Shown one piece after another: positions 1,421 through 62,690 of a stretch of 64,000 nucleotides of DNA; the first letter of the stretch is position 1, and every line of letters begins with the position of its first letter. The DNA is from Nannocystis bainbridge. GTDB lineage: Bacteria > Myxococcota_A > Polyangia > Nannocystales > Nannocystaceae. Below the pieces are notes generated by a model, which was given only the letters and a program-made list of their open reading frames with translations, ran no database searches and was not told the DNA's origin. The translations under genes and the position numbers were made by a program. Where the stretch lies: the NCBI RefSeq assembly GCF_028368995.1, contig NZ_JAQNDL010000001.1, positions 2,592,001-2,656,000 of the forward strand. The letters are read 5' to 3'.

Positions 1421-3007
1421 GTGTTCGCCCGCCGCGAAATCGGCACCGCCCTGGCGCTCGCCGGCATCGCCGGCCTGTCGTGCCTGGTCCGCCTGCCCGG
1501 CTTCCGCGAGGGCGGGTTCGCCTCCCACGACGTCGGCGGGATCCTCTACGAGGCAATGCTCCTGCGCGCCGGCGGCCTGCCCTACGTCGACGCGATCGAG
1601 CTCAAGGCCCCGGGCACCTTCTACCTCGCCACCGTGCTCGCCGGCCCCGACGGGCGTGACATCGCCGCCTTCCAGATCGCCGCCAACCTGGTCGCCCTCG
1701 CCTCCTTGTTGGTGCTCGCCGTGCTCGCCTGGCGGCTGTGGGGCGCCCGCGCGGCCGTCGTCGCCGCCGCGCTGTACGCCCTGCACGACGCCCACCTCGA
1801 CAGCATGGACGCCAACTACGTCACCTGGGCCCAGCTGCCGGCGATCGCCGCCGGGCTGTGCGCGGCGCGGGCGGCCGCCTGGCGCGAAGAACCTGTCTCT
1901 TCGCGCAGGTCCTTCGGGACATGGCTCCTGGGCGGGGTGATGTGCGGCCTGGCCGCGCTGTGCAAGCAGCCCTCCGGCGTCGTGCTCCTGCCGGTGTTGT
2001 TCTGGGCCGTGTGCCCGCCGGGGCGCCGCGACCTCCGGGCCGGTCTCGCCGTGCTCGCCGGCTTCCTGCTCGCGCACCTGCCGGTCGGCCTGCACTACCT
2101 CGCCCGCGGCCACCTCGGCGCGCTGCTCGGCGGCTACGTGTGGAACCCGTGGGGCTTCGAGTACATCGCCCGCAACACGGCCGCCACCGCGCCGGCGCGG
2201 GCCGCCTGGGAGCTGCTCGCGGCGGCGGTCCACTTCCTGGCCCTGCCGCTGGCGCTGGCGCTGTTGGCCCTGACCGCCCGTCCTCGAGGACATGCCGCGA
2301 AGGACATGTCCCAAGGTACTCCATCCCATGTCTCGAAGGACAGCCGCGAGGTCCCCGGCGCCACCCGCTTCCTGCTCGCCTGGACCGCCGCCGCCGTGGC
2401 CGCCGCCGCCACCGGCCTGCGCTTCTACAAGGGCTACTGGCTCGGCGTCCTGCCGCCGCTGTGCCTCCTCGCCGCCGCGCCGTGGGGCGTCTGCGCCGCT
2501 GCCCCGTGGCGACGCGGCTGGCCGCGCCTCGTGCTCGCCCCGCTGATCCTCGCCCTGACCGTGCGCGCCGCCTGGGCCGTGCGCCTGACGCGAGACGACC
2601 GCGCCCGCCCGCACGACGAGGGCGCCCGCGCGATCGGTCGCTGGCTCGGCGACCGCACCGGCCCGGACGACACCATCTGGGTGTGGGGCTGGCACCTGTG
2701 GGGCGTGCACGCCTACAGCGGCCGGCTGTCGGCCAGCCGCGTCTACAAGACCCTCGGCCTGCTGACCACCACGCCCGACGACACCTGGCGCACCCCCGCC
2801 GGCCCGCCGCAGATGCTGGCCGACGGCCCGTGGGCGCAGCAGCTCCTGCGCGACCTGGCCGCCGCTCCGCCGGCGTTCGTGGCGATCGGCGGCACGGCCC
2901 CGAAGCACGAATTCCCGGCCCTGCGCCGCTTCCTCGCCGCGCACTACGTCCGCGACTACGGCCTGCGCTTCGGCAAGGTGGAGATCTGGCGCCGCGCGGA
3001 CCGCTGA
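1421..3007 (+). CDS. GT-C type membrane glycosyltransferase (ArnT/PMT-like)
   Basis: Multi-TM protein with D-x-G-x-x-Y...GGLPYVDAIELKAPG and LAALCKQP motifs. Start GTG 1421 is estimated; the ORF-track extension to 545 is low-complexity. Confidence 0.75.
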   Translation: MFARREIGTALALAGIAGLSCLVRLPGFREGGFASHDVGGILYEAMLLRAGGLPYVDAIELKAPGTFYLATVLAGPDGRDIAAFQIAANLVALASLLVLAVLAWRLWGARAAVVAAALYALHDAHLDSMDANYVTWAQLPAIAAGLCAARAAAWREEPVSSRRSFGTWLLGGVMCGLAALCKQPSGVVLLPVLFWAVCPPGRRDLRAGLAVLAGFLLAHLPVGLHYLARGHLGALLGGYVWNPWGFEYIARNTAATAPARAAWELLAAAVHFLALPLALALLALTARPRGHAAKDMSQGTPSHVSKDSREVPGATRFLLAWTAAAVAAAATGLRFYKGYWLGVLPPLCLLAAAPWGVCAAAPWRRGWPRLVLAPLILALTVRAAWAVRLTRDDRARPHDEGARAIGRWLGDRTGPDDTIWVWGWHLWGVHAYSGRLSASRVYKTLGLLTTTPDDTWRTPAGPPQMLADGPWAQQLLRDLAAAPPAFVAIGGTAPKHEFPALRRFLAAHYVRDYGLRFGKVEIWRRADR

Positions 3008-3145
3008 AATGACATGTCCATTGCGACATGTTCATGTCGCCATGTCATTCCCCCGCGGCCGACCGCGACGACCGGGCAAAGATCGACCGATCGCAGGCAA
3101 ACCCGCGCCCTGGCGCCGATGCGACGCCAGGCCGACATTGGCGGC

Positions 3146-4183
3146 ATGCGAACGCGACGGACTCGACGCGGAGGCCTCACGCGGCGGCGGTTGCTCGGAT
3201 GGGCCGGGCTGACCGGCCTGCTGGGGTGCTCGCGCCGCTCGCCCGTCGCGCCCCCGCAGGAGGGCTCGACCATGGATTTCGACATCGTCATCGTCGGCGG
3301 CGGACCGGCCGGCCTCAGCGCCGCCCTCGCGCTCGGGCGCGCCCGCAAGCGCGTGCTCGTGTGCGACGCCGGCGCGCCGCGCAACCTCGCCGCCGCCCAC
3401 ATCCAGGGCTTCGTCACCCGCGACGGCACGCCGCCCGCGGAGTTCCGCCGGATCGCCCGCGCCGAGCTGACCGCCTATCCGGGCGTCGTCGTGCGCGACA
3501 CCCGGGTGCTCGACATCGCCGCGCAGGCCCCCGACGCCTTCGCCGTCACCCTCGCCGGCGACGCCCGCGTGACCGCGCGCCGCGTGCTGCTGTGCACCGG
3601 CCTCGTCGACGAGCTGCCGCCGCTGCCCGGCATCGCCGAGTTCTGGGCCACCAGCGTGCATTTGTGCCCCTACTGCCACGGCTGGGAGCTGCGCGAGCGG
3701 CCGCTCGGCTACCTGTGCCCGGACCCGGCGATGCTCGAGTGGGCGCTGCTGCTGCGCGGCTGGTCGCCCACGGTCGTGGTGTTCACCGACGACGCCTTCG
3801 CCGTGCCCGCCGACACGCGCGCGCACCTGCAGCAGGCCGGCGTGGCGATCGAGCCGCGCAAGCTGAAGCGGCTGGTCGGCGCCGGCACGCTGACCGCGGC
3901 CGAGCTGACAGACGGCGACCGGATCGCCATCGAGGGCCTGTTCGTGCGGCCGAAGCAGCATCAGGTCCCGATCGTCGCCGGCCTCGGGCTCACGCTCGAC
4001 GAGCACGGCTTCGTCAAGGTCGACGATTTTAAGCAGACCTCGCGCCCGGGCATCTACGCCGCCGGCGACCTCACGACCGGCCTGCAGGGCGCCATCTTCT
4101 CCGCCGCCGCCGGCTACCTCGCCGGTGCCGCGATCAACCACGGCCTGACGACCGAGCTGGCGCTGCGCGGCGAGCTCGAGTGA
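3146..4183 (+). CDS. NAD(P)/FAD-dependent oxidoreductase, thioredoxin-reductase-like
   Basis: DIVIVGGGPAGLSAA FAD motif, CPYC redox motif, TSRPGIYAAGD. Alternative start ATG 3272 has a GGAGG RBS; start 3146 adds a Tat-like plus lipobox leader. Confidence 0.9.
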   Translation: MRTRRTRRGGLTRRRLLGWAGLTGLLGCSRRSPVAPPQEGSTMDFDIVIVGGGPAGLSAALALGRARKRVLVCDAGAPRNLAAAHIQGFVTRDGTPPAEFRRIARAELTAYPGVVVRDTRVLDIAAQAPDAFAVTLAGDARVTARRVLLCTGLVDELPPLPGIAEFWATSVHLCPYCHGWELRERPLGYLCPDPAMLEWALLLRGWSPTVVVFTDDAFAVPADTRAHLQQAGVAIEPRKLKRLVGAGTLTAAELTDGDRIAIEGLFVRPKQHQVPIVAGLGLTLDEHGFVKVDDFKQTSRPGIYAAGDLTTGLQGAIFSAAAGYLAGAAINHGLTTELALRGELE

Positions 4184-4191
4184 CCGCGCCT

Positions 4192-4251
4192 CATGTCCTC
4201 GAGGACATGCTCTTGAGGCCATGTCCTCGAGCAAATGTCCTCAAGGACATC
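4192..4251. repeat. 14-bp-phased GACATGTC-type array between convergent genes
   Basis: CAT cores at 4192, 4206, 4220, (AAT 4234) and 4248. Confidence 0.85.
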
Positions 4252-4261
4252 AACAAAAAAA

Positions 4262-5138: not shown

Positions 5139-5456
5139 AAATACCGCCCACCTGCGACCCGAGCACGAGGATGGCGCCAGGCGGCCGACCCCGGCTCACT
5201 TCCGCGAGCGCGGAGCCGCCGCGAGCTGTCGCCGGCCGGGCGCATCACGGCTCGCAATCCACCGTGCGTCTCACGGTCGGCTTCGCCCTCGCCACGCGCC
5301 GCTCTCGATGACATGTGAGCCGCTGCACGACGCCAGCGCGCCTCGAGGTTCGCGTGCATCGACGGCCCCGCGTGTCCGCACGCCCGCGTGAGCCCGGCGA
5401 CGCGCCGACCCCTGGCGAGCGCCGGCGGGCTTCCGCTATGGTGACCGTCCACTCCC

Positions 5457-6986
5457 ATGTCGACCCGCTGTCTGCTGTTCGTCCCGCTCCTCCTCTCCCT
5501 CGCCTGCGGCGGCAGCGACCCGGGCGCCAGCACCGGCACCGACGATTCGACCTCGACCGGCCCCGGCAATTCGACCGGCACCACCGCCAACCCCGGCCCG
5601 ACCAGCACCAGCGTCGACCCGACCACCTCGAATTCGACGACCGGCAGCCCCACCGGCACCACCACCACCACCGGTGACGACACGACCACGACCTCGAGCC
5701 CCGTCACCTCGACGACGACGAGCACCACCGACGGGCCCGACACGACCACCACCACCGGCGATCCCGACACCACCACCGGCGGCGTGATCGACGGCTTCCT
5801 CATCGGCGTGCACACGGCCGACGTCTCGCCGACCGACGCGCACCTCAACAAGAACGTCTACATGGGCGCCTACGGGGCCCCGTTCACGCGCGGCCCGGCC
5901 CAGGGCGTGCACGACGCCATCTTCGCCCGCAGCTTCGCCATCGAGGGCGACGGCGGCGGCGTGATCATGTCGATCGTCGACCTGCCCGGCATGGGCAACC
6001 AGAACACCCGCGCCGTGCGCCAGAAGGTCGCCGAGCTCACCGGCCTCGACGAGGGCCAGATCCTCGTCGGCACCACCCACAGCCACTCCGCGCCCGACCT
6101 CATGGGCCTGTGGGGCGGCGTGCCCGGCGACTACCGCGACTACATCAACGACGAGATCGCCCACAGCATGGCCGCCGCGTGGGACGCCCGCGTCCCGGCC
6201 ACGCTGGCGGTCGCCACCGTCAAGGCGCCCAACAACAACCGCCGCGGCTGGGGCTTCACCGACGACGACATGACGATCCTCGACGCCAAGGACCTCGACG
6301 GCGAGCGCATCGGCACGCTCGTCAACTTCGCCGCCCACCCGGTGATCCTCGGCGAGGGCAACAAGGAGATCTCGTGCGACTACGTCGGCTACTCGGTCCA
6401 GAAGATCGAGGCGGCCCTCGGCGCGCCCGCCAGCCTGTTCAACGGCGCCCTCGGCGACGCCACGCCCAAGGTCCCCGCCGGCGAGTACCCCGACGATTTC
6501 GCCCGCGCCCAGGCCTACGGCGAGCTGCTCGCCGACCTCGCCATCGCCGCCGTCGAGACCGCCGAGCCGGTCGAGGGCTCGCTGGTGTGGTCGCACACCG
6601 AGTGGGAGCAGGGCGTCGACAACCTGCTGTTCCAGCTGGCCGCCGGGCTCGGGATCCTCCAGTTCGACTTCGAGTCGATGGGCCTGTCGCAGGTCGTCAC
6701 CACCCAGAGCACCTACTTCCGCCTCGGCACCCAGATCCAGGGCGTGGCCTTCCCCGGCGAGTCGCTGACCCGCAACGGCCTGGCGATCAAGGAGACCATG
6801 AAGGCCCCGCACAAGCTGATCCTCGGCAACACCGGCGACGCCCTCGGCTACTTCATCCCCAGCGACGAGTGGCAGACCGGCAAGAACGACAACTACGAGG
6901 AGACGGTGTCCCTCGGCAAGACCGCCGGCGACACCGCCCGCAACAAGATCAACGCCCTGGTCACCGCCGACAACGCCAACTTCTGA
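5457..6986 (+). CDS. Lipoprotein with Thr-rich linker and neutral/alkaline ceramidase-like domain
   Basis: LSLAC lipobox, long Thr/Ser linker, GVHDAIFARS, THSHSAP and NFAAHPV motifs. Confidence 0.75.
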   Translation: MSTRCLLFVPLLLSLACGGSDPGASTGTDDSTSTGPGNSTGTTANPGPTSTSVDPTTSNSTTGSPTGTTTTTGDDTTTTSSPVTSTTTSTTDGPDTTTTTGDPDTTTGGVIDGFLIGVHTADVSPTDAHLNKNVYMGAYGAPFTRGPAQGVHDAIFARSFAIEGDGGGVIMSIVDLPGMGNQNTRAVRQKVAELTGLDEGQILVGTTHSHSAPDLMGLWGGVPGDYRDYINDEIAHSMAAAWDARVPATLAVATVKAPNNNRRGWGFTDDDMTILDAKDLDGERIGTLVNFAAHPVILGEGNKEISCDYVGYSVQKIEAALGAPASLFNGALGDATPKVPAGEYPDDFARAQAYGELLADLAIAAVETAEPVEGSLVWSHTEWEQGVDNLLFQLAAGLGILQFDFESMGLSQVVTTQSTYFRLGTQIQGVAFPGESLTRNGLAIKETMKAPHKLILGNTGDALGYFIPSDEWQTGKNDNYEETVSLGKTAGDTARNKINALVTADNANF

Positions 6987-7073
6987 GCCCCGGCGCACCT
7001 GCACCTTTGGACATGCCCGATCGAGCCTGCCCGTTCGGACATGCTCGATCGGACATGACCCACCCTCGCCCGC

Positions 7074-7625
7074 CTAGCCCGGCACGCGCGCGGGCCGGCC
7101 GTCCGGGGGCGTCGGCGCGACCACGCGGAACGTGACGCGCACGCGGTCGATGTGGCCGTCGCCGTCGGCCACGGAGATCGGCAGGACCCAGTCGCCCGGC
7201 TCGGAGAGATCGAGCGCGAGGGTCCACTGCGTCCCCTCGGAGTTGGTCGGCCAGCCCTCGGGGAAGAACGCCGAGGCGGTCGCCCCGGTCGGCGGGTCGA
7301 CGGCCTCGAACGTCAGCATCAGCGGGTAGGTCGGCGTCTCCATCGTGGACTCGTCGTCGTCGTCCATGAAGTCCGGCCCCGTGCGCACGTCGAGGGCGAC
7401 CCGCGTCCGCCCCGGCACCGACGGCCAGGCGAAGTTGCTGTTGGGGAACGGCGAGAACTCGAGCACGTAGAGCCCCTCGTCGGTCTCGATCGGCCGCCCC
7501 GCGACCACGTACTGGACCGACATGTCCGGCTCGCCCCCCGGGGCCGGCTCCGTCGGCGGAGCGCACCCGCCCGTCATCAGCAGCCCCGCGATCGTGCAAC
7601 CCATCAGCCCGCCGAAGTTCGACAT
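7074..7625 (-). CDS. Hypothetical lipoprotein (probable Ig-like fold)
   Basis: ATG 7625 with GGAGG RBS; LLMTGGC lipobox; C-terminal LDLSEPGDWVLPISV. The rest of ORF 7074..10505 is a shadow frame. Confidence 0.75.
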   Translation of the reverse strand: MSNFGGLMGCTIAGLLMTGGCAPPTEPAPGGEPDMSVQYVVAGRPIETDEGLYVLEFSPFPNSNFAWPSVPGRTRVALDVRTGPDFMDDDDESTMETPTYPLMLTFEAVDPPTGATASAFFPEGWPTNSEGTQWTLALDLSEPGDWVLPISVADGDGHIDRVRVTFRVVAPTPPDGRPARVPG

Positions 7626-7855
7626 ACGACCTCCTGCCGCCAAGCGTAGCCCGCGAGCCGGCGACGACCACCCGCAGCGCTTGCGCGGGCCGGCCCCGCC
7701 GCCGGTAGGAATTGCTCGCAGCCGGCCAAGACGACCGGGCGAGCGACGATATGTCCCGAGAGACATATGACAGATTCCAGCGGGCCCGGCTCGTGACATG
7801 TCTCCATGGACATGTCCTTCGCGCCCTGTCCGCCTGCCCCTCGGGACAGGCGGGC

Positions 7856-9482: not shown

Positions 9483-10277
9483 ATGCGCGCCTCGACCTCT
9501 CGCGCCGGTGCCCCGCCGCCGCCGCCGCTGCGCCGCGCGCCAGCCCTCGGCGCGCGCGGCTCGAGCCGCGGACCCGCGATCCCGCGGCGGCCCGCGGTCA
9601 CCATCGCCGGGGTCGTCACCGCCCGTCCGCTCGCCACCCGCCCGCCGTCGCCGCGCTGCCCGCCCGCGAGGGCGACGCACGGGACGAACGGCTTCCGCCC
9701 GCCGCCGGGCGTCCCGTGGTCGGGCTCGAAGTCGCAGCGCCTGGGCGCCGCCGCGGAGGCCGCGGATCCTCGACCTGGCCGAAAGAGCAGGCCGGCGCTC
9801 GCCGCGGACCCGCGCGCCGCCCCACCCTCGCCCGCCCGCCCGGCCAAGACCGCCGCTCTCCGCTGCGGCGGGACGCCGGCGCTCGCGGCGGTCGTCCGCG
9901 ACGGCCTCGCCGGCGTCCTCGGCCTCTATGTCCTTCGGGACAGACCAGCGGACCCGCGCCCCGACGCATCGCCGCCGCTGCTCGACGGCGTCCTCGGCCT
10001 CTATGTCCTTCGGGACAGACCAGCGGACCCGCGCCCCGACGCATCGCCGCCGCTGCTCGACGGCGTCCTCGGCCTCCATGTCCTTCGGGACATCCCACGG
10101 GGTCCTGCCCCCGACGCCCCGACGTCGATCGAACATGGCCCCGGGGACATGTCGATGGCGCCGCCCCGGCGTCCGGCGCTCCGCCGTCACCGCCTCCGCC
10201 GGCCCTCCGCGCCGCTCCCACCGGGCCCGTCGCGGCCGCTCCCCCCGCTGCCGCAGCGTCGCCTGCCATTTTTTTAA
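9483..10277 (+). CDS. Doubtful Pro/Arg-rich ORF containing a 25-aa repeat
   Basis: Fills the gap between genes and carries repeated DGVLGLYVLRDRPADPRPDASPPLL, but has no recognisable domain. Confidence 0.25.
   Translation: MRASTSRAGAPPPPPLRRAPALGARGSSRGPAIPRRPAVTIAGVVTARPLATRPPSPRCPPARATHGTNGFRPPPGVPWSGSKSQRLGAAAEAADPRPGRKSRPALAADPRAAPPSPARPAKTAALRCGGTPALAAVVRDGLAGVLGLYVLRDRPADPRPDASPPLLDGVLGLYVLRDRPADPRPDASPPLLDGVLGLHVLRDIPRGPAPDAPTSIEHGPGDMSMAPPRRPALRRHRLRRPSAPLPPGPSRPLPPLPQRRLPFF
9912..10095 (+). repeat. 75-bp tandem repeat, about 2.4 copies
   Basis: Unit GGCGTCCTCGGCCTCTATGTCCTTCGGGACAGACCAGCGGACC... starts at 9912, 9987 and 10062. Each copy contains TGTC-N6-GACA. Confidence 0.92.
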
Positions 10278-14484: not shown

Positions 14485-14535
14485 CCGTTCGGACATGCCC
14501 GACGGGACATGCCCCTTCGGGCATGTCCCGAATCA

Positions 14536-16377
14536 TCACACCCTGCGCGTCACCAGCGAGTCGTAGAGCGCCGGGGTGTCGGCTTGCAGGCCCTCGAACC
14601 ACTGGAAGAACTTCGGCAGCATCGCCTTTTGGTCTGGCGTCAGGTAGTCGAAGTTGGACCCGCGGTCGTTGACCTCCCAGAACTCGGGCGTATCGAGGTT
14701 GGCCAGCTCGATCCACATCGAGCGCAGGCGGCGGGGGTCTTCCAGGCGCATGTCTTCGGCGATCCGGCGCGCCAGCGACGACGCGCCGTAGACCAGGTAG
14801 TGCGTCGCCAGCTTGATCTGGGCCTTTCGCACCCCGCGCAGCGCCTTGGCCTTGTCGGACGACTCGGTCGCGTCGTCGACCGCGAGGAAGATCTTGAGCA
14901 GATCGTCGTGGCACTCGCTGCTGAGCTGGAACGCCCGCTGGCACATCGTGCCGATGTCGTGGGCGATCACCTCGGCCACGAACGCCATGTTGCGCTGGAA
15001 CGCCACCCCCGAGTAGTAGCGCATGCGGTGCGCGATCTCGATGGCGCGGTCGGCCAGCGTCTTGTCGCGGTCGATCACCGTCGGCTTCGACCGCTTGCCG
15101 ATCTCGAGCACCGTCTCGCCGAGCTGGCGGTACTGGTGGAGGATGTTGTACGCGGTGCGGATGTCCGACGCGTTGAGGGTCGCGCGCAGGTACGTGTTGA
15201 AGAACTTGATCGTCAGGTCGAGCGCGCGCAGGTCGCCGTAGACCGAGGCGGCCTCGCCGAGGCGGCGGGTGTTGATGGCGAGCAGGTAGCAGATGTCCTT
15301 GATCTGGCTCTGCCCCTCGGTGAACAGCATCTGGTACTGGCGCAGCACCTTCCACTCGAGCCAGGTCCGGCGGTGGCGGAGGTCGGTGATCGCCTCTGGC
15401 GACAGCGACACGAAGTCAGGGCTCTGGCGGTCGGGGATCTTGAACCACTCGAGCACCATGCCGTTCTTCATCTCGCCGTACTCGACGCAGAACTCGCGCA
15501 GCGCGTCGATCGTCGTCGAGACGATGTTCTTGTCCTTCTGCTGCAGCGCGTTGAGGCCGATGTTGGTCAGGTGCTCGACCGCCTCGACCGCGCTGCGCTG
15601 GCGCTGCTCGATGGTGATCGACTGACGGCCGAGCTTGGTGGTGCAGGCGTCGAGCCCGTTGGTCTTGATGCGGCCGATGATCTTGTTCGGGTCGAGGAAG
15701 TCGAACACGTACGCGAAGTACGGGAACAGCAGCAGCAGGCTGGCCGTCATCAGCACCATGGAGAACATCACGTCCCAGCGCGGGCCGGCGTAGTCGGCCC
15801 CGTCGAGCGAGAAGTTCACCCACACCACGAACAGCGTCGAGACGACGAAGAACCCGAGCACCAGCATGTTGGTGCGCGCGCGGAAGAACAGCACCGTGAT
15901 GTGCGGCGTGAACCGGGTCGCCGCCAGCTGGACGATGATGCTCGAGACGGTGAGCGCCAGCCCGAGGACCGCCGCCATCACCTCGCCGAGCCCGCCGACG
16001 GTGTTCTGCGCCTTCTCGAGGTCCTGGTGGATCAGCCGGTCGACCAGGCTCAGCTCGTCGGCGCCGGTGTACGACAGCACGTTGAGCCAGAACGACAGCA
16101 GGTAGAACACCACCACCACGGCGCCGATCATCACCAGCGGCACCGACCACGTCTTGAGGGCCAGGCGGTACTGCCCGCGGGCCTGCTGCCGGCGCCGGAT
16201 CTCCGCCTCGCGCGGCTGGCCGTCGACCGGCAGCCGGCGGAGGATCATCGACCGGCTGGCGTGGAGCGTGTCGTCGAGCTTCTCCTCGCGCGTGACCGCG
16301 GTCGGCGACACGCTCGGCTCCTGCGGTCGCTGCGGCGGCGGCTGCGGCCCCTGCGCTGCCTTCGGCTCGTCGTCCAC
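14536..16377 (-). CDS. DUF2254-like membrane protein with helical C-terminal domain
   Basis: TM segments with IIVQLAATRFTP. Start GTG near 16377 is estimated. Confidence 0.75.
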   Translation of the reverse strand: MDDEPKAAQGPQPPPQRPQEPSVSPTAVTREEKLDDTLHASRSMILRRLPVDGQPREAEIRRRQQARGQYRLALKTWSVPLVMIGAVVVVFYLLSFWLNVLSYTGADELSLVDRLIHQDLEKAQNTVGGLGEVMAAVLGLALTVSSIIVQLAATRFTPHITVLFFRARTNMLVLGFFVVSTLFVVWVNFSLDGADYAGPRWDVMFSMVLMTASLLLLFPYFAYVFDFLDPNKIIGRIKTNGLDACTTKLGRQSITIEQRQRSAVEAVEHLTNIGLNALQQKDKNIVSTTIDALREFCVEYGEMKNGMVLEWFKIPDRQSPDFVSLSPEAITDLRHRRTWLEWKVLRQYQMLFTEGQSQIKDICYLLAINTRRLGEAASVYGDLRALDLTIKFFNTYLRATLNASDIRTAYNILHQYRQLGETVLEIGKRSKPTVIDRDKTLADRAIEIAHRMRYYSGVAFQRNMAFVAEVIAHDIGTMCQRAFQLSSECHDDLLKIFLAVDDATESSDKAKALRGVRKAQIKLATHYLVYGASSLARRIAEDMRLEDPRRLRSMWIELANLDTPEFWEVNDRGSNFDYLTPDQKAMLPKFFQWFEGLQADTPALYDSLVTRRV

Positions 16378-16427
16378 GGGCGCCACGGTAGCAGAGGTCG
16401 AGCCGCTGGGGTTAGAGTGCCCCGGCC

Positions 16428-20914: not shown

Positions 20915-21334
20915 GTCCCCTCTATGCCCCAGCCCTCGCCGGCCCGCCACGCGCCCTTCCGCGCGGCGCACATTCGCCCGGCGCGACCGTGCGCATCACA
21001 TGTCCTTCAAGACATGTTCATGGGCGATTGCGCCCCGCTCCGCCCGGTTCGGAGATCGACCTGGCGGAAAGGACAGCACCCGATCTTCACTACTTCACGA
21101 TTTAAACATGTCCTCAAAGACATGTAAACCGTCCAAGCGGCGGCATCTTCGTCAGCTCGAGCAGCATCGCGACAGCGACACCAGCCCTGCAGGCCGATCG
21201 TCACCCGCAGGCGGGTGAGCGGTCACGCTCTTGGCGCGTCGGAGATCATGTCCCTTGGGACATGCCGTCCCACCGCGCCCCGAATCCGCTGCGTCAACAT
21301 GCGAGCCAGCGGCAGCGTGCCACCGGCGCGAGCA

Positions 21335-41535: not shown

Positions 41536-41590
41536 CCCAAAGGACAGGGTCATTACGACATGTTTTCGAGAACATGTCCTGACAGACACT
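41515..41590. repeat. 14-bp-phased GACATGTC-type array (6 units) between convergent genes
   Basis: Cores at 41517, 41531, 41545, 41559, 41573 and 41587; overlaps the WD40 stop codon. Confidence 0.9.
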
Positions 41591-44140: not shown

Positions 44141-44194
44141 TGCATGTCCTTCAGGGCATGTCCTCGAGGACATGCCACCTCGGGGCCATGTCTT

Positions 44195-44602: not shown

Positions 44603-44837
44603 GAACCCCTCCCGACCCTGCGGTCGTCGCGGTTCGTGGACCGGGACCTCGCGACCGTCAAGCCGGCCTCGCGTCGCGCCCGGCGAACGCCGACCCGGCG
44701 CGCGCGAGCCGTCGCCGCCGCGCGGCTCGGCGGCGTGCGGGGCCGCCGTGACGCGCACGAGCGCGCGCCGACGACATGTCCCGCAGGACATGTGATGCGC
44801 AGTTACGACCTGTCCCGCGGGACAGGCCGCCGCGGCG

Positions 44838-50522: not shown

Positions 50523-50686
50523 GGGAACCATGAGCCTGGTCCGCGCCGCCGTCGAGCAGGCTCTGCCGCGAAATTATGCGCCGGGCGGGCCGCCCGCGGC
50601 GGGCGGGCGGCAGTATGTACATATGTCCATCAGGACATATTGATCATATGCGCGGGTCTGCACATTGGCCCGCGCGCGGCCGACCG

Positions 50687-53266
50687 TCAGCGCTCGCGGT
50701 CGCGCCGCGCCAGCACCACCGCCGCGATGCCGACGCACAGCGCCGTGTACGCCAGCAGCACGCCCCAGACCTCGAGCACGTGCGCGGTCGAGGGGTCGTA
50801 ATCGACGGTCGGGTAGACGGGGCAGCTCAGCGGGTTGCCGGGGATCGTGCAAGCGGCGAAGTCCCGCGGCGGCTGCAAATGGGTGACCGAGCCGAACGCC
50901 TCCATGGCCCAGCGCGCGCTGGTGACGTACGACAGCGGCGCGAGCCCGGCCGGCAAGGACACCAGCGCCATCGCCAGCAGCAGCTGCGGCACGAGCACCA
51001 GCGGCACCACGCTCATCGCCCGGTCGGAGGTCGTCGAGGTGCTCGACAGCAGGAGGCCCATGCCGAGCCCCGACAGAGAGCTCAAGAAGGTGGTGACCAG
51101 CAGGCTGCCGAAGAACCCCAGCCCCGCGACCCCGCGCACCACCGACACCGGCCCGTTCGCGGTGAAGGTCGTCACCGCCGCCGAGAAGTCGACCTTGGCC
51201 GCCAGCACCGTCAGCAGCACGATCGACTGCACGAGGCAGATCGCCGCCAGCACCACGAACTTGGCCAGCAGGTACGGGCCGATCCGCAGGTTCGCCAGCC
51301 GCTCGCGGCGGTAGATGGCCCGCTCTTTGGTCAGCTCGCGCGCCGAGCACAGGATCCCGCACCACACCGCGACCAGGGCGACGAGGAACAGCACCAGGCG
51401 CCCGTGCGAGCTCTGGAGGTCCTGCAGCGCGCCCTGGCGAGCCACGAGCACCAGGATCGCGCCGATGATCGGGGCCTGCAGCAGCAAGGTCGCCAGGTTG
51501 CGCCGGTCGACCGCCAGCAGCCGAATGTTGCGGCGGACCAGGATCACCCACTGCTGCCACGCCGACACCCGCGCCGTCTCCGGCCGGTCCTCCGGCGTGG
51601 TGCCGCCGACCTTCATCGCCGTCATCGTCATCGACGACCGGCTCTGCGTGCTGTGCAGCTTGCTCGGCTTGACCGCGGGCCCGCGCGCCTCGCCGGCCAG
51701 ACGCTCGACGATGTAGCGCGTGCGGGCGTCCGAGCGGCGGAACCGCAGCTCCCACAGCTCGGCCAGCGACGGCTCGCCGCGCTCGTGGGCCTCGCGCCAG
51801 CGGGCGTACTCGCTGCGCAGCTCGCCGAGCACCAGCGGGTGCGACTCGTGGGCGTCGCCCTCGACCTTGGTGTAGATGTCGGCGAAGTCGCCGCTGCGGA
51901 CCCCGAAGTGCTGCAGCGCCTCGGCCGGCGGCCCGAACCACACCAGCCGCGCGTCGGCCATGAACGCGATGTGATCGCATTGATGGATGTTGGCGGTCGC
52001 GTGGGTGACCATCACGATCGTGCGCCCGCCGTCGGCCAGCCGGCGCAGCGTGTACATCAGCCGCTTCTCGAGCCCGGGGTCGAGCCCCGAGGTCGGCTCG
52101 TCGAGGAAGAACAGGCTCGGGTCGGCCAGCAGCTCGGCGGCGATCGAGACCCGCTTGCGCTGGCCGCCCGACAGCTGGCTGATGCGCGTGGTCCGGCGGT
52201 CTTCGATGTCGACGTCGGCCAGCACCCGCTCGACCCGCGCCGCGATCTCGGCGTCGCCGGTGTCCTCGGGCAGGCGCAGCTGGGCGGTGAAGCGCAGCGC
52301 CTCGTCGACGGTGAGCGTCTGGTGGAGGATGTCGCTCTGCGGGACGTAGCCGACCTGGCCGCGGTAGGCGGCGAAGTTCGCGTAGTAGTCGTCGCCGTTG
52401 ACCAGCACGTCGCCCTCGCTGGCCCGGCTGAAGCCCGACAGCGCGCCGAGCAGCGTCGACTTGCCCGCGCCCGAGCCGCCGACGATCGCCACGAACTCGC
52501 GCGGCAAGATCGCCAGCGACACGCGGTCGAGGATCACCTTGCCGCCGCCGACCACCCGCACGAGCCGCCGCGCCTTGAGCTCGATCGCCCCGCGGTGGTC
52601 GTACGAATCGAGCGAGCGCCCGTCGTAGGCCAGCTTGAACGGCCCCACCTGAATGATGTCACCACGCGCCAGCTTCTTGCTGAGCTGGACCCGCTCGCCG
52701 TTGACGAAGGTGCCGTTGGCGCTGCCGAGGTCGCGCACCTCGTGGCCATCCGCCAATGCCCGTACGGTCGCGTGCCGCCGCGACACCAGCAAGCTCGCCA
52801 GCGTCAGCTCGCAGCCCTCGCGGCCGATCGTGACCTCGGGCTGGTCGAGCCGACAGCGCGGCACCGACTCGTCCGGCGGCGCCATCGTCCGCGCCAGCCG
52901 CTGGTAGGTCATCGTCACGAAGCTGCCGGTGTACGGATCGCCGACCCGCAGCACGTCGCCGTGGCGCAGCTCGTGCTCGGACACCTGGTGTCCGTTGAAC
53001 ATCAGGCTGCACGGCCCGCCGAGGTCGCGGACGCGATAGCCGTCACCGACGCCGGTCGGCTCGAACCGCAGCTGATGCGCCGCGACGAACTCGGCCTTGA
53101 CGACGATCCGGTTGTCGTCGGCGCGACCGAGGCGGAACGGCTTGCCGTCGAGCGGGTACGGCACCTCGCGCTTGTTCGGCTCGCGCACCACCAGCCGCGA
53201 CGCTTGCAGCCGCACGGCCCAGGTCACTTCCGGCGACGGTTCGTCGCTGTCGGGCGTCAGCTCCAC
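50687..53266 (-). CDS. FHA-FHA-ABC ATPase-permease fusion (Rv1747-like ABC exporter)
   Basis: Two FHA domains (LGRADDN; IGR..VSRRHA..DLGSANGTFVNG), GGSGAGKST, LSGGQRKR, LDEPTSGLD, ABC2 membrane domain. Start is uncertain. Confidence 0.93.
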   Translation of the reverse strand: MELTPDSDEPSPEVTWAVRLQASRLVVREPNKREVPYPLDGKPFRLGRADDNRIVVKAEFVAAHQLRFEPTGVGDGYRVRDLGGPCSLMFNGHQVSEHELRHGDVLRVGDPYTGSFVTMTYQRLARTMAPPDESVPRCRLDQPEVTIGREGCELTLASLLVSRRHATVRALADGHEVRDLGSANGTFVNGERVQLSKKLARGDIIQVGPFKLAYDGRSLDSYDHRGAIELKARRLVRVVGGGKVILDRVSLAILPREFVAIVGGSGAGKSTLLGALSGFSRASEGDVLVNGDDYYANFAAYRGQVGYVPQSDILHQTLTVDEALRFTAQLRLPEDTGDAEIAARVERVLADVDIEDRRTTRISQLSGGQRKRVSIAAELLADPSLFFLDEPTSGLDPGLEKRLMYTLRRLADGGRTIVMVTHATANIHQCDHIAFMADARLVWFGPPAEALQHFGVRSGDFADIYTKVEGDAHESHPLVLGELRSEYARWREAHERGEPSLAELWELRFRRSDARTRYIVERLAGEARGPAVKPSKLHSTQSRSSMTMTAMKVGGTTPEDRPETARVSAWQQWVILVRRNIRLLAVDRRNLATLLLQAPIIGAILVLVARQGALQDLQSSHGRLVLFLVALVAVWCGILCSARELTKERAIYRRERLANLRIGPYLLAKFVVLAAICLVQSIVLLTVLAAKVDFSAAVTTFTANGPVSVVRGVAGLGFFGSLLVTTFLSSLSGLGMGLLLSSTSTTSDRAMSVVPLVLVPQLLLAMALVSLPAGLAPLSYVTSARWAMEAFGSVTHLQPPRDFAACTIPGNPLSCPVYPTVDYDPSTAHVLEVWGVLLAYTALCVGIAAVVLARRDRER

Positions 53267-53352
53267 GCAAGCCTTGTATTTGCAGGATCCAGCCGGCACC
53301 CGCGAATGTCAACGTTTCTGGGCAATTTCCCCACGATGTGTATGCTTGGGGC

Positions 53353-53925
53353 ATGACCACGAGGACCCAGATCTGTCAGACCCAGTCCCGCGTGCAGGCC
53401 CGGTCGGCCGTGAGCCTTGTTCCTCGCGGGCTCGTCCTCGCCGCCGCGCTCGTCGCCGTCGCCTGCGACGACTCCGCCGAGCAGCGTAAACCTGGCCCGA
53501 CGCCGGCGGTCCCCGCGGTCGACCGCACCAAGGACACGCCGCCGGCCGAGCCCAAGCCGACGCGCCCTGCCACCGGCGCCGACACGCCGACGAGCCCGAC
53601 CGCGACCGACCCGAAGCCCTCCACCGGCTCGCCCACCGACGTCGCCGCGGTCGTGCGCACCTACAGCGGCTGCTACAGCGATTGCGTCTCCGAGAAGAAG
53701 GCGACCAACCGCGAGACCTGCAAGCTGACCTGCGACGACGCCGCCGAGGCCGCGATCGAGAGCATGCCCGGCGGTCCGTCGAAGGAGAAGTTCAAGGCCG
53801 CGGCCGCCAGCTTCACCGGCTGCGTCAACTCCTGCTTCGCCGACAAGAGCCTCAACACGACCAACCGCGCCACCTGCGTGTTGACCTGCCAGGACGCCGC
53901 CGAGGTCGCCGCGATCGGCAAGTGA
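53353..53925 (+). CDS. Lipoprotein with duplicated CX3C...CX3C module
   Basis: VAVAC lipobox, Pro/Thr linker, GCYSDC..TNRETCKLTC and GCVNSC..TNRATCVLTC. Confidence 0.8.
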   Translation: MTTRTQICQTQSRVQARSAVSLVPRGLVLAAALVAVACDDSAEQRKPGPTPAVPAVDRTKDTPPAEPKPTRPATGADTPTSPTATDPKPSTGSPTDVAAVVRTYSGCYSDCVSEKKATNRETCKLTCDDAAEAAIESMPGGPSKEKFKAAAASFTGCVNSCFADKSLNTTNRATCVLTCQDAAEVAAIGK

Positions 53926-57531: not shown

Positions 57532-57535
57532 GCCG

Positions 57536-57586
57536 GATGTCCCTCGGGACATGCCCGCTCGGGCATGTCCATGAGGACATGTCCCG
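57536..57586. repeat. 14-bp-phased GACATGTC-type array (4 units) between convergent genes
   Basis: Cores at 57536, 57550, 57564 and 57578. Confidence 0.88.
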
Positions 57587-57591
57587 CGGCG

Positions 57592-58506
57592 CTACTCGCC
57601 GACCTCGACCCGCCGGACCAGCATCGTGAAGCTCTCGAGCGCGTGGCAGCAGGTGTTGTACTGCGCCCGCTCGACGTCGATGGCGAAGCTCTCGCCGCCG
57701 CCGATCGCCAGCTCGCCGCGGTGGCCGGAGAACAGGCTCAGGGCCTGGCCTTCGAGCGTGAAGTCGAGCTGGTACGAGGTCTCGAGCGCGTCGAAATGGA
57801 CCGGGCCGCACGCCTCGGTGAGCTCGATGGCGATCGGCGCGAACACCTCGGGGATGAGGCCGCCGACCCGCGGCGCGAACCCGGCCGCCAGCAGGGCGTC
57901 GTCGGCGGCGGCGCGCAGCTCGAGCTGCTTCTCCGAGTAGACCTCGAGGTTCTCGAAGCGCGAGGCCAGCTGCACGTTGTCGCCCGCGGCCCACGCGACC
58001 TCGCCCTCGGGCGCGGCCGGCAAGATCAGCTTCGCGCTGCGCGGCACGTCGCCGTCGAGGCAGGTCAGCGTCGTGACCGACTTGCCCGCCTCCGTCGCCA
58101 CCGCGCCGACCGTGCACGGCAGGTCGACGTCGTGGTGGCCGTCCGAGTCGTCGATCTCCACCACGAATTCGGCCAGCGCCGCCGGGTCGCTCTCCGAGCA
58201 AGCGGCCGGCAGCTCGCCCTCGGTCTCTCCCTCTGTCTCTCCCTCTGTCGCGCCCTCCGTCGCGCCCTCCGTCGCACCCTCCGTCGCGCCCTCCGTCGGA
58301 TCGACGCCCGTATCGGTCGGCTCGGTCGCGCCTTCGGTCGCCCCTTCGGTCGCCCCTTCGGTCGCCCCTTCGGTCACGCCCTCGGTCGCTCCTTCGGTCT
58401 CCTGCGGCGCCGTCTGCGACGAGCCTTCCTGCGCGGTGGAGCACGCCATCGCACCGCAGCACAAACCCGTGAACACCCAGTAATTAAAGCCACGAAACGC
58501 AATCAT
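57592..58506 (-). CDS. Lipoprotein with (TEGA)n linker
   Basis: GAMAC lipobox; 12-bp TEGA/TEGE repeats at about 58218-58400; Cys-containing C-terminal domain. Confidence 0.85.
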   Translation of the reverse strand: MIAFRGFNYWVFTGLCCGAMACSTAQEGSSQTAPQETEGATEGVTEGATEGATEGATEGATEPTDTGVDPTEGATEGATEGATEGATEGETEGETEGELPAACSESDPAALAEFVVEIDDSDGHHDVDLPCTVGAVATEAGKSVTTLTCLDGDVPRSAKLILPAAPEGEVAWAAGDNVQLASRFENLEVYSEKQLELRAAADDALLAAGFAPRVGGLIPEVFAPIAIELTEACGPVHFDALETSYQLDFTLEGQALSLFSGHRGELAIGGGESFAIDVERAQYNTCCHALESFTMLVRRVEVGE

Positions 58507-58648
58507 GCTGCCGGTGTAGCACAGGCGCGAGGGCCCGCAAAAGCCTGCAGCCGACGGTCACGCGATTTCTCGAGCGAGACATGCCCGCACGGTATGTCAC
58601 TCGCGCCATGACACGCCGGACATAGTGAACCATCGCTGTCTCGGAGAA

Positions 58649-58987
58649 CATGTCTCCCGGGACATGTTATTCGCGCGCCGCCCTGGCGCACGCGCGCGCG
58701 CGCGCTCGCCTGTACGCACGAGCAGCGACCTCGATGCACATGTCTCTCGGGACATGTCTCGCGCGCCGTCCTGGCGCACGCGTGCGCGACCGGACGCACG
58801 AGCAGGCGACCTCGATGCACCTGTCTCTCGGGACATATGACTCGCGCGCCATCCTGGCGCTCTCGCGCCATCCTCGCGCACGCGTGCGCGCTCCATCCAC
58901 ATGTCTCTCGGGACATCCACCCCTGGCGCTCGAGCACCTCGCGTCTCGCCGCGCGCCTCGCCTTGCGACCTGTCCCCGAGGACATCC
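58649..58987. repeat. Composite degenerate tandem array, 5 units of 69-90 bp
   Basis: Units headed by (CA/CC)TGTCTCTCGGGACAT-like sequences at 58649, 58739, 58820, 58900 and 58969, with shared CGCGCGCC.TCCTGGCGC and CGACCTCGATGCAC blocks. Confidence 0.85.
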
Positions 58988-59134
58988 TCTCCGCCTCGCC
59001 CCTCCTCCCCTGCGCCCGGACCGCACCCGCGTGCGGCCCGTCGCACCGCCCAGGCCGCCCCGGTTGCCCTTCCGCACGCCCCTCCGGCCGCCTGCCGCGG
59101 CCTCCCCGCCTCGCGCGCTGCTACACTCGCGCGC

Positions 59135-60562: not shown

Positions 60563-61074
60563 CCCTCGCGCTCGCTGCGTCGCAACATGTCCATCGGGAC
60601 ATCTGCAACGATTCCCGTGCGCGACCTGGTGCGCCGGCGAATAAACCAGCGCTCGCCGTTGGGAAGAATGGATGCACCGGCACCCGATGTCATCCTTCGG
60701 CCTCACTGTCAGTTCCTCTCCCACGCGCGAATCACCGCCCGAGAGCGCCCGGCTCGCGAAAGCGCGTGGTCACGAGCCTCGGATCTCGAAAGATCCGCGC
60801 GCGTGGCCCCGCATCGTTCATCGCAGAAAAGGTGACGAGAGCGGCCGGTTCGCGCCAGGAGTCGCATGCACCGTTACTCCGGCCGCTCTCGTCGGGAGCG
60901 TGTGGCCCACCGTGTCCCGGAGGACAGCGGTGGCCACCTTCGAATCCTTGCACGAAGGGGACGAGACGCGGCGAGCTCGCAAGGAGGTCCTGGTCAAGCG
61001 AGCTCGCCGCGCTCATCGAAGGGGGTCGGGCCAGCCAGCGGCGATCGCGGCCGGGCCCGCAGTCGGTCCTGCGA

Positions 61075-61875
61075 TTACTCGCAGAAGAAGAAGCCGGCGT
61101 AGATGTCGCCGTCGCAGAACAGCGCGCCGCCGAGGTTACAAGCCGCCTGGCAGTGGGCCATCAGGCCGGCCTGGCAGGCCGCCATCTCGTGAAGGCTGCA
61201 GTCCTCGCCGAGCTCGACGATGCACGCCGCCTCGACCGCCACCGGCGAGCACTTGGCGAGGCACTCGAGGCCCAGGTCGACCGCGCACTCCACGTTGGCC
61301 CCGAGGTTCACGTCGAGGCAGATGTCGAGGTCGAGGTCGACGTCCGCATCGAGGTCGACGTCGAAGCAGGCGTCGAGCAGCCCGTCGAGGTCGATGTCGA
61401 TGTCGATGCCGAGGTCGATGTCGATGCCGAGGTCGTCGCCGCAGCCCGCCGACCCGAGGAACACGCCGTCGCAGAACAGCGCGCCGTCAGCCTCGATCTC
61501 CGCCTCGCAGTGGGCCGTCACGTCGGCCACGCAGTCGAGGAACGCGTCGAGGCCACAATCGACGCCGAGCTCGGCGATGCACGCGGCTTCGACGCTGAGC
61601 GGATTGCAGTAAAGCTCGGCCTCGAGGTCCTTGACGATCGCGCAATCAGCTCCGAGACCGACCTCGATGTCGAAGCACTTGCCGAGGTCGAGGTCGATGT
61701 CGCCGTCGAGGTCGATGTCGATGTCGAGGTCGAGCCCCAATCCTCCCCAGCCCGGGAAGCCGCCGCCACAGCCGTTCTCGCAGCCGTGGGCGTCGGCAGA
61801 GGGGGTCGTGACGACGATCCCGGCGGTGGTGGCGAACGCGGCGGCGACGAAGATGGAAGAGATGATGCGGGTCAT
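61075..61875 (-). CDS. Secreted Cys/Asp-rich protein with two family-A domains and (D-hydrophobic)n tracts
   Basis: GGAAGG RBS; signal peptide; DLDIDIDLD tracts; two units ending GALFCDG. Confidence 0.85.
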   Translation of the reverse strand: MTRIISSIFVAAAFATTAGIVVTTPSADAHGCENGCGGGFPGWGGLGLDLDIDIDLDGDIDLDLGKCFDIEVGLGADCAIVKDLEAELYCNPLSVEAACIAELGVDCGLDAFLDCVADVTAHCEAEIEADGALFCDGVFLGSAGCGDDLGIDIDLGIDIDIDLDGLLDACFDVDLDADVDLDLDICLDVNLGANVECAVDLGLECLAKCSPVAVEAACIVELGEDCSLHEMAACQAGLMAHCQAACNLGGALFCDGDIYAGFFFCE

Positions 61876-62690
61876 GGTGAGCCTTCCTTCCGGTGTCGGA
61901 AAGTGTGTAGATCGCTGGTAGATGGGGGTCTACGCGGCGAGGAGACCATCGAGTCGCCGCGGAGGATCCCGGCAGGCGACATTGACGAGGCAACCATGGG
62001 GCGCACGTCGATCGGGGCAAGCAAAAAATCGTGGGTGGACGATGCGCCCCGGGGTCCAATGGCCGCGTGGTCGGTTCGCTACACCGCCGTCAGAGCCGCT
62101 GCAGAGGCTCTTTCGGCCAAATTGATAGATCCGAGTGCAACGCGACAAAGGCCGGGCCGAGCCCGGTCTCAGGCCGGCGGGTTGCGGAAGCCGCGCTGCG
62201 AATTCCAGCGTTTGGGCGGCAATTGCTGGCGAATTGGCACGATAGCAGTCCGCGCGAACGACCAATTCATTGCCAGCACCTGCAAACTGTAGGCAACGGT
62301 AGCCACGTGGCCGGCGCCGTCCATCGCCGATTCGGCGCCATGCCACGCACGAGTCCGCCAGTGTGATGATTCCGGGCTCATCCAGCCGAATCGCGGTATG
62401 CCGCCGCTTCACGACCGATTCGGCCGATGAGCCCGGCCCCGCTCCGCCTTGCATATCCGAGGATTGATCAGGGGCCACCCGAGCGAGGGTGAGGACAATT
62501 CATTGGCCCGATCGCGGGACACTCCCGACATTTGGCCTCGACGGCCGCGCTCGCCGATAAACCACGTTCACACGGGCGTAGCAGCGCCTGGAACACGTTT
62601 CTATCGACGATGACGTCTCCCCGGCGCAGCGGCTCGGCCCGGTGCTGTCAAATGCAGGTGCTACGATATGTCTCTTCCGACATATGGTTA

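Follow-up and report, generated by a model that had tools for sequence, protein, structure and literature searches.

A 14-bp-phased palindromic dyad amplified in the genus Nannocystis, apparently an undescribed repeat of the hyper-abundant kind

Why should a short palindromic word recur at exact 14-bp intervals, in clusters that lie mostly between unrelated genes, throughout a stretch of bacterial DNA? The stretch in question is 64,000 nucleotides from the soil myxobacterium Nannocystis bainbridge (G000:C1:2592001-2656000, referred to below as the window, G000 being the source genome). An earlier note, made from its letters, had described clusters of a core, GACATGTC, in strict 14-bp phase and had proposed that they are sites for a cooperatively binding protein. 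The G000 assembly comprises 11.05 Mb in 5 contigs with 71-72% G+C, and motif counts in the window were compared with those in dinucleotide-preserving shuffles. The clusters are built from a bipartite dyad, TGTCC-N4-GGACA, which is a real, genus-amplified and apparently undescribed repeat of the hyper-abundant palindrome kind. What reads it, if anything does, is weighed below.

The dyad and its phased arrays

The window has 17 copies of GACATGTC where 0.88 would be expected, none of 100 shuffles giving as many (the largest had 5), and ACATGT-N8-ACATGT, with up to two mismatches, occurs 46 times against 0.26. The motif is present at all 23 places listed in the earlier note, as well as at its start at 1893, and the claimed phasing holds for the whole of G000. 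The autocorrelation of CATG, for which peaks at 14, 28 and 42 bp had been predicted, gives exactly these genome-wide: 3736 pairs are 14 bp apart, 2073 are 28 bp, 1586 are 42 bp, 751 are 56 bp and 383 are 70 bp apart, whereas distances of 13 and 15 bp have 72 and 262 pairs, respectively. That 14 bp is about 1.33 helical turns, three units making four turns, is arithmetic and not a result.

The core itself is not the elementary unit. TGTCC-N4-GGACA is found in 1987 exact copies in G000, whereas the N0-N3 and N5-N10 spacings of the same two arms give 0-16 copies each. In the reverse order, GGACA-N0-TGTCC (the decamer GGACATGTCC) has 956 copies and the other spacings 4-19. The commoner N4 dyad therefore replaces GACATGTC as the unit, and GGACATGTCC is the joint of two abutting dyads, from which the 14-bp period follows. 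A partner arm at N4 is present on at least one side in 760 of the 956 decamers. Both joints are also found alone: no arm abuts 1145 of the 1987 N4 dyads, and 196 decamers stand without a partner at N4.

An A or C precedes the dyad and a T or G follows it in 1755 of the 1987 copies, so that MTGTCC-N4-GGACAK has 1755 copies compared to 1 for its backwards control; the variant CTGTCC-N4-GGACAG has 413 exact copies. The outer positions of the spacer are biased, in that A is seldom the first base and T seldom the last (4% each). The elementary unit is the 16-bp dyad M-TGTCC-N4-GGACA-K, with a spacer preference that gives M-TGTCC-YNNR-GGACA-K. The spacers are AT-richer than the genome, as had been noticed: 39.6% AT in all exact dyads and about 51% in arrays of at least four units (calculated from the matrix), compared to 28.5% for G000. 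Enrichment belongs to the dyad and not to the single word, since the window contains 140 copies of MTGTCC, 56 being expected, and, by our reading of the coordinates, the roughly 45 copies outside dyads are at chance level or lower.

A first catalogue of sites was built on the decamer and a later one on the N4 dyad. The lone-decamer class of the first was not used, because its 5114 matches compare with 5550 for a control palindrome and represent noise; its arrays of 2 to 12 units number 2536, 796, 396, 285, 245, 101, 27, 9, 1, 1 and 2, respectively. The dyad catalogue contains 5446 loci, 3264 of them single, and its loci of 2 to 9 dyads number 1140, 495, 163, 209, 130, 33, 10 and 2. Good dyads succeed one another at 14, 28, 42, 56 and 70 bp in 485, 305, 232, 128 and 64 cases, and in none at 13 or 15 bp. 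The arrays are dyads joined end to end, in which phase and arms are constant and the spacer is free. The statement that phase is conserved rather than sequence was right as to the phase and the spacers; the sequence of the arms is kept as well. Dyad loci are found on all contigs of G000 and are sparser in 50-kb bins of lower GC content (Spearman 0.51, density against GC).

The spacers also bear on how arrays arise. Perfect direct matches between spacers of one array, for pairs 1 to 4 units apart, amount to 2.9-5.2% compared to 0.8-1.4% by chance, and perfect reverse-complement matches to 1.5-3.7% compared to 1.1-1.4%. On this scarcity of identical spacer pairs, an origin of the arrays by tandem duplication was rejected. 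A long-hairpin model, in which unit i pairs with unit n+1-i or neighbouring spacers pair with each other, was rejected because spacer complementarity is near chance.

Distribution, conservation and placement

The strict three-unit pattern was found in G000 and in 6 of 10 other genomes of the genus, and in 0 of 30 genomes of other genera. Among 185,579 species' genomes it gave 31 loci, 28 of which are in records titled Nannocystis. Matches in a metagenome-assembled genome (MAG) of the Alphaproteobacteria and in Nocardiopsis were rejected as arrays, since they are simple tandem repeats in which the spacers do not vary. A contig from a myxobacterial MAG not titled Nannocystis (L033) carries a three-unit array with unlike spacers just past a stop codon; it looks like a true array, and the MAG may be a Nannocystis relative. 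Apart from this contig, arrays were found only in Nannocystis among the genomes searched. None of 150 further genomes in the class, and no viral contig, was found to have an exact two-dyad array, and 100 kb from each of three other genera of the family gave neither the 14-bp CATG peak nor any other phased motif. The peak is present in the assemblies of all five relatives, and the array is thus no peculiarity of one genome, which the earlier note had named as a way in which its claim could fail.

The dyad on its own is more widespread. The 16-mer has 1755, 1545, 519 and 309 copies in four Nannocystis genomes, 49-68 copies in all four genomes of a sister genus (g2) and 45-248 copies in all four of a second (g4). 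Genus g33 has 2-10 copies and eleven other genera 0-4, the same as the backwards controls (0-4). CTGTCC-N4-GGACAG has 497, 255, 169 and 23 copies in four further genomes of Nannocystis. The dyad is older than the genus Nannocystis, in which it has been multiplied and arrayed and in which a stem extension seen in the sister genera (described below) is no longer found. A single g4 genome, G178, has 248 dyads compared to 45-111 in the three others, and seems to show amplification at an intermediate point in a genus other than Nannocystis.

Five relatives are syntenic with G000 across the window. Locus by locus, unit number and every spacer vary among them, the CATG joints stay in phase, and the arrays stay at the gene 3' end despite genes inserted beside them. 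Of the window gaps compared between G000 and the relative G010, 16 carry an array in both, 4 only in G000, 1 only in G010 and 13 in neither; four further relatives agree with G010 on this coincidence. For gaps bearing any dyad the corresponding figures are 35, 19, 6 and 35 (odds ratio 10.7, p 9e-7). To measure constraint, 480 kb of G010 was compared with G000, giving an alignment of 367,773 bases in which 90.9% agree. In 35 exact dyads, 335 of 350 arm positions are identical (95.7%), compared to 112 of 140 for their spacers and 567 of 700 for their flanks (80-81%), and to 1742 of 1980 for lone TGTCC/GGACA words outside dyads. Fisher p for the arms is 3.9e-6 against the lone words and 4e-12 against the flanks. 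The dyads lie in fast-changing DNA in which their arms change 3-5 times more slowly than the surroundings, and they are conserved at orthologous places both in and between open reading frames (ORFs), as is reported for words of the HIP1 (highly iterated palindrome) type.

The likeness to HIP1 suggests one alternative, that the dyad is a word kept by drive, either through a cognate orphan methyltransferase coupled to biased repair or through uptake or recombination of the cell's own DNA by way of a dimeric receptor. The arrays would then be places that tolerate many copies. An excess of more than 100-fold in and between genes, conservation at orthologous sites, no sign of an RNA or peptide role, and fewer copies in the lower-GC 50-kb bins, which are possibly foreign DNA, would all agree with this. 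So would the geometry of the arms, whose adenines are 9 bp apart on opposite strands; that is the typical spacing of a Type I methylation target. The features of the dyad match those reported for HIP1 (PMC5861425), and later papers reportedly link HIP1 to methylases and transformation. Drive would leave unexplained the exact 14-bp abutment, never 13 or 15 bp, and single arm words are not enriched outside dyads, unlike uptake sequences.

A possible agent of such drive is an HsdM-HsdS Type I methyltransferase pair at G000:C1:2005000-2009000 (L104 4035-8002), with N6_Mtase and HsdM_N domains in HsdM and a two-domain HsdS. Its neighbours are of a housekeeping type, encoding an NAD kinase, a response regulator with a GGDEF domain and an RRM protein, and among the ORFs within about 6 kb that were tried, Pfam identified no HsdR. 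HsdS-like matches are present in 11 of 11 genomes of the genus, a conservation that is unusual for a specificity subunit. The two recognition domains are unlike each other, however, so that the target is expected to be asymmetric and a palindromic one is unlikely; the pair was rejected as the reader on these grounds, and the point also tells against drive, which we judge to be an unlikely explanation as a whole.

The placement of the dyads relative to genes is biased in degree. They are 5-6 times denser between genes and frequently stand just beyond stop codons. Intergenic calls, which make up 15% of G000, contain 916 exact dyads, and at most 664 lie deep within predicted genes (the confident deep-genic calls covering 59% of the genome), compared to 0-5 at control spacings. 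The over-representation is more than 100-fold inside as well as between genes, where a HIP1-type word shows at least 15-fold. Coding dyads occupy all three frames (792, 408 and 381). Because a 14-bp insertion shifts the reading frame, the in-gene dyads must arise without insertion, and an origin de novo by point mutation seems probable. By the calls of our own crude gene finder, arrays occupy 25-32% of intergenic gaps; 412 of 2170 array ends have a stop codon at 0-20 nt, and 112 of 2010 a start codon at that distance. Long arrays often span a gap from stop codon to stop codon. The preference for gene 3' ends and convergent junctions noted earlier is therefore real, but in G000 it is only mild, as 31.8% of convergent and 24.8% of divergent gaps have an array. 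A group of three perfect 18-mers, with intervals of 58 and 70 bp, stands upstream of a 589-aa gene with no Pfam match (G000:C2:1404089-1404234).

In-gene copies also bear on the idea of a selfish palindrome like the repetitive extragenic palindromic (REP) sequences and their bacterial interspersed mosaic elements (BIMEs). On this account a hairpin or cruciform would be copied as single-stranded DNA by some enzyme, and the arrays would be BIME clusters. The dyad does resemble such elements in being lineage-specific, of high copy number, mostly intergenic and inclined to 3' ends, in its regularly spaced clusters, in the variation of unit number at one locus between species, in an in-frame expansion within a protein loop of two relatives, and in the modest extension of the stem in the sister genera. 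Against this, there are about 660 exact in-gene copies where a 14-bp insertion would shift the frame, and the decamer joints, which have no loop, occur alone. Copying would carry spacers along, whereas spacers are nearly unrelated even between neighbours, and only 5 bp per arm are kept, with no compensatory change in G000.

The REP-associated tyrosine transposase (RAYT) expected of such a system was searched for, as the earlier note had advised. No match to the Y1 (HUH) transposase family PF01797 was obtained in G000 (90.5% complete), where a control search matched 6 of 14 reference genomes; with this result, no compensatory pairing and hundreds of copies inside genes, the suggestion of a RAYT-type system was not borne out. 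G000 contains 29 long repeated stretches of at least 400 bp. Most are either copies of a 5.3-kb unit, presumably the rRNA operon, or repeats at contig ends, and the rest belong to three small families. Since these stretches are few and the motif is missing from the ends of the three families, neither long repeats nor insertion sequences were accepted as carriers of the dyad. The contig-end repeats, 3.5-20 kb long and common to C1 4515655-4536530, C2 0-3513 and 3021544-3033751, and C5 710377-717528, are probably unresolved assembly repeats. An origin as a REP-like element is, in our estimate, distinctly unlikely.

Pairing, candidate readers and the favoured explanation

If the dyad acted as a hairpin, changes in one arm would be expected to be balanced in the other. 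Deviations between neighbouring array units are hardly compensated. In the flanks of 3264 lone dyads, pairing is at chance at positions 2-6 and slightly above it at position 1 (1721 compared to 1514 expected), and around the perfect 18-mers of G000 the stem is not extended, 71.8% of cells being paired compared to 71.9% in shuffles. With 556 dyads oriented by their upstream gene, the sense strand has 102 mismatches of the G.U type and 98 of the A.C type, and neither strand is consistently preferred in the loops. A hairpin made of a 5-bp arm and a 4-nt loop is feeble in any case, and the decamer joint has no loop at all.

These results bear on the possibility that the dyad is a conserved stem-loop at the RNA level, which would terminate transcription from either side or shield transcript 3' ends, the arrays being multiple hairpins. 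The 412 of 2170 array ends that lie 0-20 nt from a stop codon, the convergent gaps filled by arrays, and the way an array keeps to its gene end despite inserted genes would suit such a role. So would the sister-genus sites, which are mostly at 3' ends, one of them (L107) having a 12-bp stem and, directly after it, a run of T. A terminator in G000 was nevertheless not supported by the equality of G.U and A.C mismatches, where pairing kept on the transcribed strand should favour G.U over A.C. Stem extension was not seen in G000, and the consensus flanks have no run of T such as would follow the GC-rich hairpin of an intrinsic terminator. Divergent gaps are arrayed nearly as often as convergent ones, hundreds of copies are inside genes, and the arm sequence is kept far beyond the needs of pairing. 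Rfam at its gathering thresholds gave 0 matches over the whole window, and in the 20 kb from 36001 to 56000 only 2 of 11 terminator-like hits touch a dyad. We regard an RNA-level role as very improbable.

The all-or-none N4 spacing, arms kept without pairing, strand symmetry, the origin of copies inside genes, and constraint together point to a dimeric reader of double-stranded DNA. The explanation that we favour is that the dyads are sites for a putative dimeric DNA-binding factor, placed side by side on the arrays, to which a rough probability of 0.45 is given; the figure is held there because no protein was found. The proposal of cooperatively bound protein sites fits most of the tests.

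In such a scheme the word 5'-M TGTCC (Y N N R) GGACA K-3' would be read by a dimer, with one monomer on each 5-bp arm and the arm centres 9 bp apart. A second contact could form where the arms of neighbouring dimers stand back to back, GGACA directly followed by TGTCC, with centres 5 bp apart. Gap-free alignment of dimers would produce the strict 14-bp period and set each dimer about 120 degrees from the last. The word would be born by point mutation wherever it is tolerated, ie most densely between genes and past stop codons and more thinly in genes, and would then be held by purifying selection or by sequence-specific drive. The ancestor common with the two sister genera may already have carried the word at tens or hundreds of places, chiefly gene 3' ends; these would have been multiplied 10- to 30-fold and arrayed in Nannocystis. 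Binding to the arrays may be cooperative, and a cellular role may lie in nucleoid organisation or the marking of transcription-unit ends. What the data establish is the anatomy of the dyad, its strict spacing and strand symmetry, its conservation and its spread among taxa; the protein dimer as reader, the cooperativity and any such role are inferred.

A bolder version, which we consider unlikely, makes the arrays a genome-wide boundary system, into which an ancestral 3'-end site of some dozens to hundreds of copies would have been turned. A dimeric protein, present in abundance, would polymerise along the gap-free arrays of 2-9 dyads through the two contacts with arm centres 9 bp and 5 bp apart, at about 120 degrees per dimer, and so form spiral plugs that mark the ends of transcription units. 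If true, the plugs might work as roadblock terminators, as barriers to supercoils or as anchors of the nucleoid, and would be a bacterial counterpart of insulators. A filament-forming reader at gene ends would represent a new principle of bacterial chromosome or transcription-unit organisation. If drive is the correct explanation, the dyad would add an independent second example to the HIP-like words, one far richer in sequence information.

Several candidate readers were tried. For a LuxR-type receptor there was a single borderline match to the autoinducer-binding domain, of 23.7 bits (cut-off 23), in a 1275-aa open frame at G000:C2:1753985-1754362 (L081), and neither the number of dyads nor their placement suits a regulon. 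The P53 domain PF00870 had no match in G000, in a search whose control also matched 0 of 14 reference genomes. An autoregulated binder was rejected, as set out among the following points.

A number of observations weigh against a protein-dimer reader. The searches made did not identify a binding protein for the dyad; no DNA-binding Pfam family was found among the genes downstream of 14 perfect 18-mer sites, and the genes adjoining the window arrays (40 window genes were scanned) are mutually unrelated. Thousands of strong sites would demand a very abundant protein. The conservation of the arms fits sequence-specific drive, whether by biased repair, linkage to methylation or uptake, equally well as selection for binding. 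The two variable positions in G000 show positive covariation that is weak, with odds ratios near 2 by our calculation, and that could come from local GC content. In g2 and g4 the flanks extend the stem modestly, with a covariation of 0.145 compared to 0.094, a value that 18 of 500 shuffles attain. Of 15 perfect 18-mers in these genera, about 11 are on, or at most about 60 nt past, a stop codon, 7 of them in convergent gaps, as judged with a simple ORF picker, and the sites look like terminator-type 3'-end hairpins. This 3'-end placement and the stem extension of the sister genera count in favour of the REP-like and RNA explanations. Lastly, the in-gene dyad counts are upper estimates, since gene positions came from our own crude caller, which over-extends starts and placed at least one gene on the wrong strand.

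Loci in the window, and comparison with known systems

Five-unit arrays with exact 14-bp spacing are at 4189-4254, 6995-7060, 25024-25089 and 41514-41579, and four-unit arrays at 37084-37135 and 57533-57584. The first locus, an array of 2 dyads at 1889..1926, is within the coding region of a PMT_2-type membrane glycosyltransferase (ORF 545..3007, plus strand) and is spanned by the PMT_2 match to residues 53-209 of window:1454-3007. Further along the same ORF, 3+1 dyads at 2279..2342 are in frame in a loop of the protein, which reads ...RGHAAKDMSQGT... there. In the relatives G010 and G007 this loop is about 190 bp longer, in frame, and has 4-5 further dyads; by eye, the extra DNA consists of 3-4 units of roughly 40-45 bp, each approximately ...PQDMSPxT.... 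The protein is one verified case of dyads in a coding region.

Just beyond the end of ORF 545..3007 is an array of 3 units (3010..3047). The 5 units at 4189..4254 start 6 bp past the stop codon of an oxidoreductase gene (3191..4183, plus strand), and the orthologous gap of G010 and G007 has no array. In G007 the counterpart of window 4184-4272 contains an unrelated tandem repeat instead, with units of about 50 bp (GCATCCGCATCGCTTCGAGTGACGCGAGCC...); intergenic DNA of the genus turns over fast. The array at 6995..7060 (5 units) is in the gap between genes 5436..7004 (minus strand) and 7152..7649 (plus strand), and a dyad, a 3-unit array and a further dyad share a single intergenic gap at 7747..7848. 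At 9929..10154 three identical dyads in a 75-bp tandem repeat are followed by one more dyad. The repeat (window 9906-10092) has 2.5 copies that are 98% matching, each copy with one identical dyad (TGTCCTTCGGGACA).

Between two minus-strand genes is an array of 3 units, 14491..14528, which is 8 bp from the stop codon of 14536..16386. Three separate single dyads share one long intergenic region at 20996..21267, and three more, 35 and 38 bp apart, are at 23082..23168. The array of 5 units at 25024..25089 is in the divergent gap of genes 23131..25014 (minus) and 25146..26066 (plus). Two dyad loci follow at 26223..26310, and a single dyad 8 bp past a stop codon at 26992..27015. An array of 3 dyads (28562..28608), ahead of the beta-lactamase-fold domain of ORF 28318..30021, is kept in 5 of 5 relatives. 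Two dyads at 36323..36394 are just past the stop codon of a TerB-domain gene, the second being a perfect 18-mer with an 11-bp inverted repeat. The array of 4 units at 37084..37135 is present in 4 relatives with other spacers, and two single dyads are intergenic at 38352..38499. Four single dyads (39330, 40188, 40281 and 40406) are inside a long ORF call at 39330..40424. Their arms are kept in relatives; the spacers differ at 40188 and 40281, the dyad at 39330 is identical in 5 of 5, and that at 40406 has no aligned counterpart.

A convergent gap is filled by an array of 5-6 units at 41514..41588, whose second unit contains the stop codon of ORF 40516..41535; the array is present in 5 of 5 relatives, with differing unit numbers and spacers. 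The 3 units at 44140..44177 lie in another convergent gap and begin on the stop codon of a gene for an EamA transporter, and the array remains at the gene end in relatives with extra genes inserted. One contig from a soil metagenome (record 14, run X2) spans this array, among four runs that gave fragmented contigs. Two single dyads at 44772..44829 are in a divergent gap, and a single dyad at 50621..50640, upstream of gene 50648..53356, is kept in 4 relatives. The array of 4 units at 57533..57593 starts 2 bp past the stop codon of a Ser/Thr kinase gene, and 5 of 5 relatives have arrays there. Five dyad loci about 80-90 bp apart (58637..58989) are within longer degenerate repeats; these 80-90 bp repeats (58640-58990) are GCGCGC-rich with one dyad each and come after two 12-bp tandem arrays at 58215-58399. 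A single dyad at 60583..60606 is 21 bp past a stop codon, and a weak single dyad (ATATGTCT-N4-CGACATAT) at 62666..62685 is near the called start of gene 62652..66026.

The author of the earlier note did not recognise a described element here, and no description of the dyad was found in a literature search whose coverage leaves out most subscription journals. It can nevertheless be set beside several known systems. The DNA uptake sequences (DUS) of Neisseria and uptake signal sequences (USS) of Pasteurellaceae are present in thousands of genus-specific copies, with inverted pairs at gene 3' ends, and the dyad is similarly frequent and genus-specific in coding and non-coding DNA. They differ in being oriented single words that are enriched alone, whereas the dyad is enriched only at exact N4 and stands in strict 14-bp phase, and in the window count its single word is not enriched on its own.

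Among operators, the met-boxes of MetJ are, like the dyad, symmetric sites repeated without a gap, so that bound dimers can touch. The variant with 413 copies, CTGTCC-N4-GGACAG, fits letter for letter the consensus CTGNCC-N4-GGNCAG published for the CviR box CTGNCCNNNNGGNCAG (of the LuxR/GerE-type 6-N4-6 form). MetJ and LuxR-type operators number from few to tens per genome and are in promoters, whereas the dyads number thousands and are mostly away from them; the resemblance to CviR and LuxR sites is a lead by analogy, not membership. The joint GGACATGTCC likewise equals, in published usage, a half-site of the p53 response element RRRCWWGYYY, and this is a resemblance only.

REP sequences, BIMEs and the REPIN-RAYT systems of Enterobacteria and Pseudomonas are, like the dyad, lineage-specific palindromes in intergenic DNA and at 3' ends, with regular arrays that vary in size among relatives. 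A REP unit is about twice the size of the dyad. Of four features that define REPs, the dyad has one, being a high-copy lineage-specific palindrome clustered intergenically, and is without the other three (confinement to extragenic DNA, a compensated hairpin and a Y1 transposase). It differs also in its nearly unrelated spacers and many in-gene copies, and has no RAYT.

Hyper-abundant palindromes such as HIP1 and REP have been known for decades without a functional explanation. The grammar of the dyad is unusually sharp by comparison, and nature provides a dose series, from approximately 50-250 copies in two sister genera to approximately 1750 exact copies and arrays in Nannocystis. Its closest analogue appears to be HIP1, GCGATCGC, of cyanobacteria, which is reported to be 15- to 300-fold in excess in and between ORFs and to be conserved between genomes in a way that implies selection, had no RNA or peptide role found for it, and was proposed to act at the level of DNA or the nucleoid (PMC5861425). 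The dyad is likewise a hyper-abundant palindrome, more than 100-fold in excess in and between genes and with conserved arms. Its word is not GCGATCGC, and no cognate methyltransferase is known for it. HIP1 is a contiguous 8-mer of another phylum that forms no arrays, whereas the dyad is bipartite (5+4+5), is 5-6 times denser between genes, and is joined into gap-free phased arrays.

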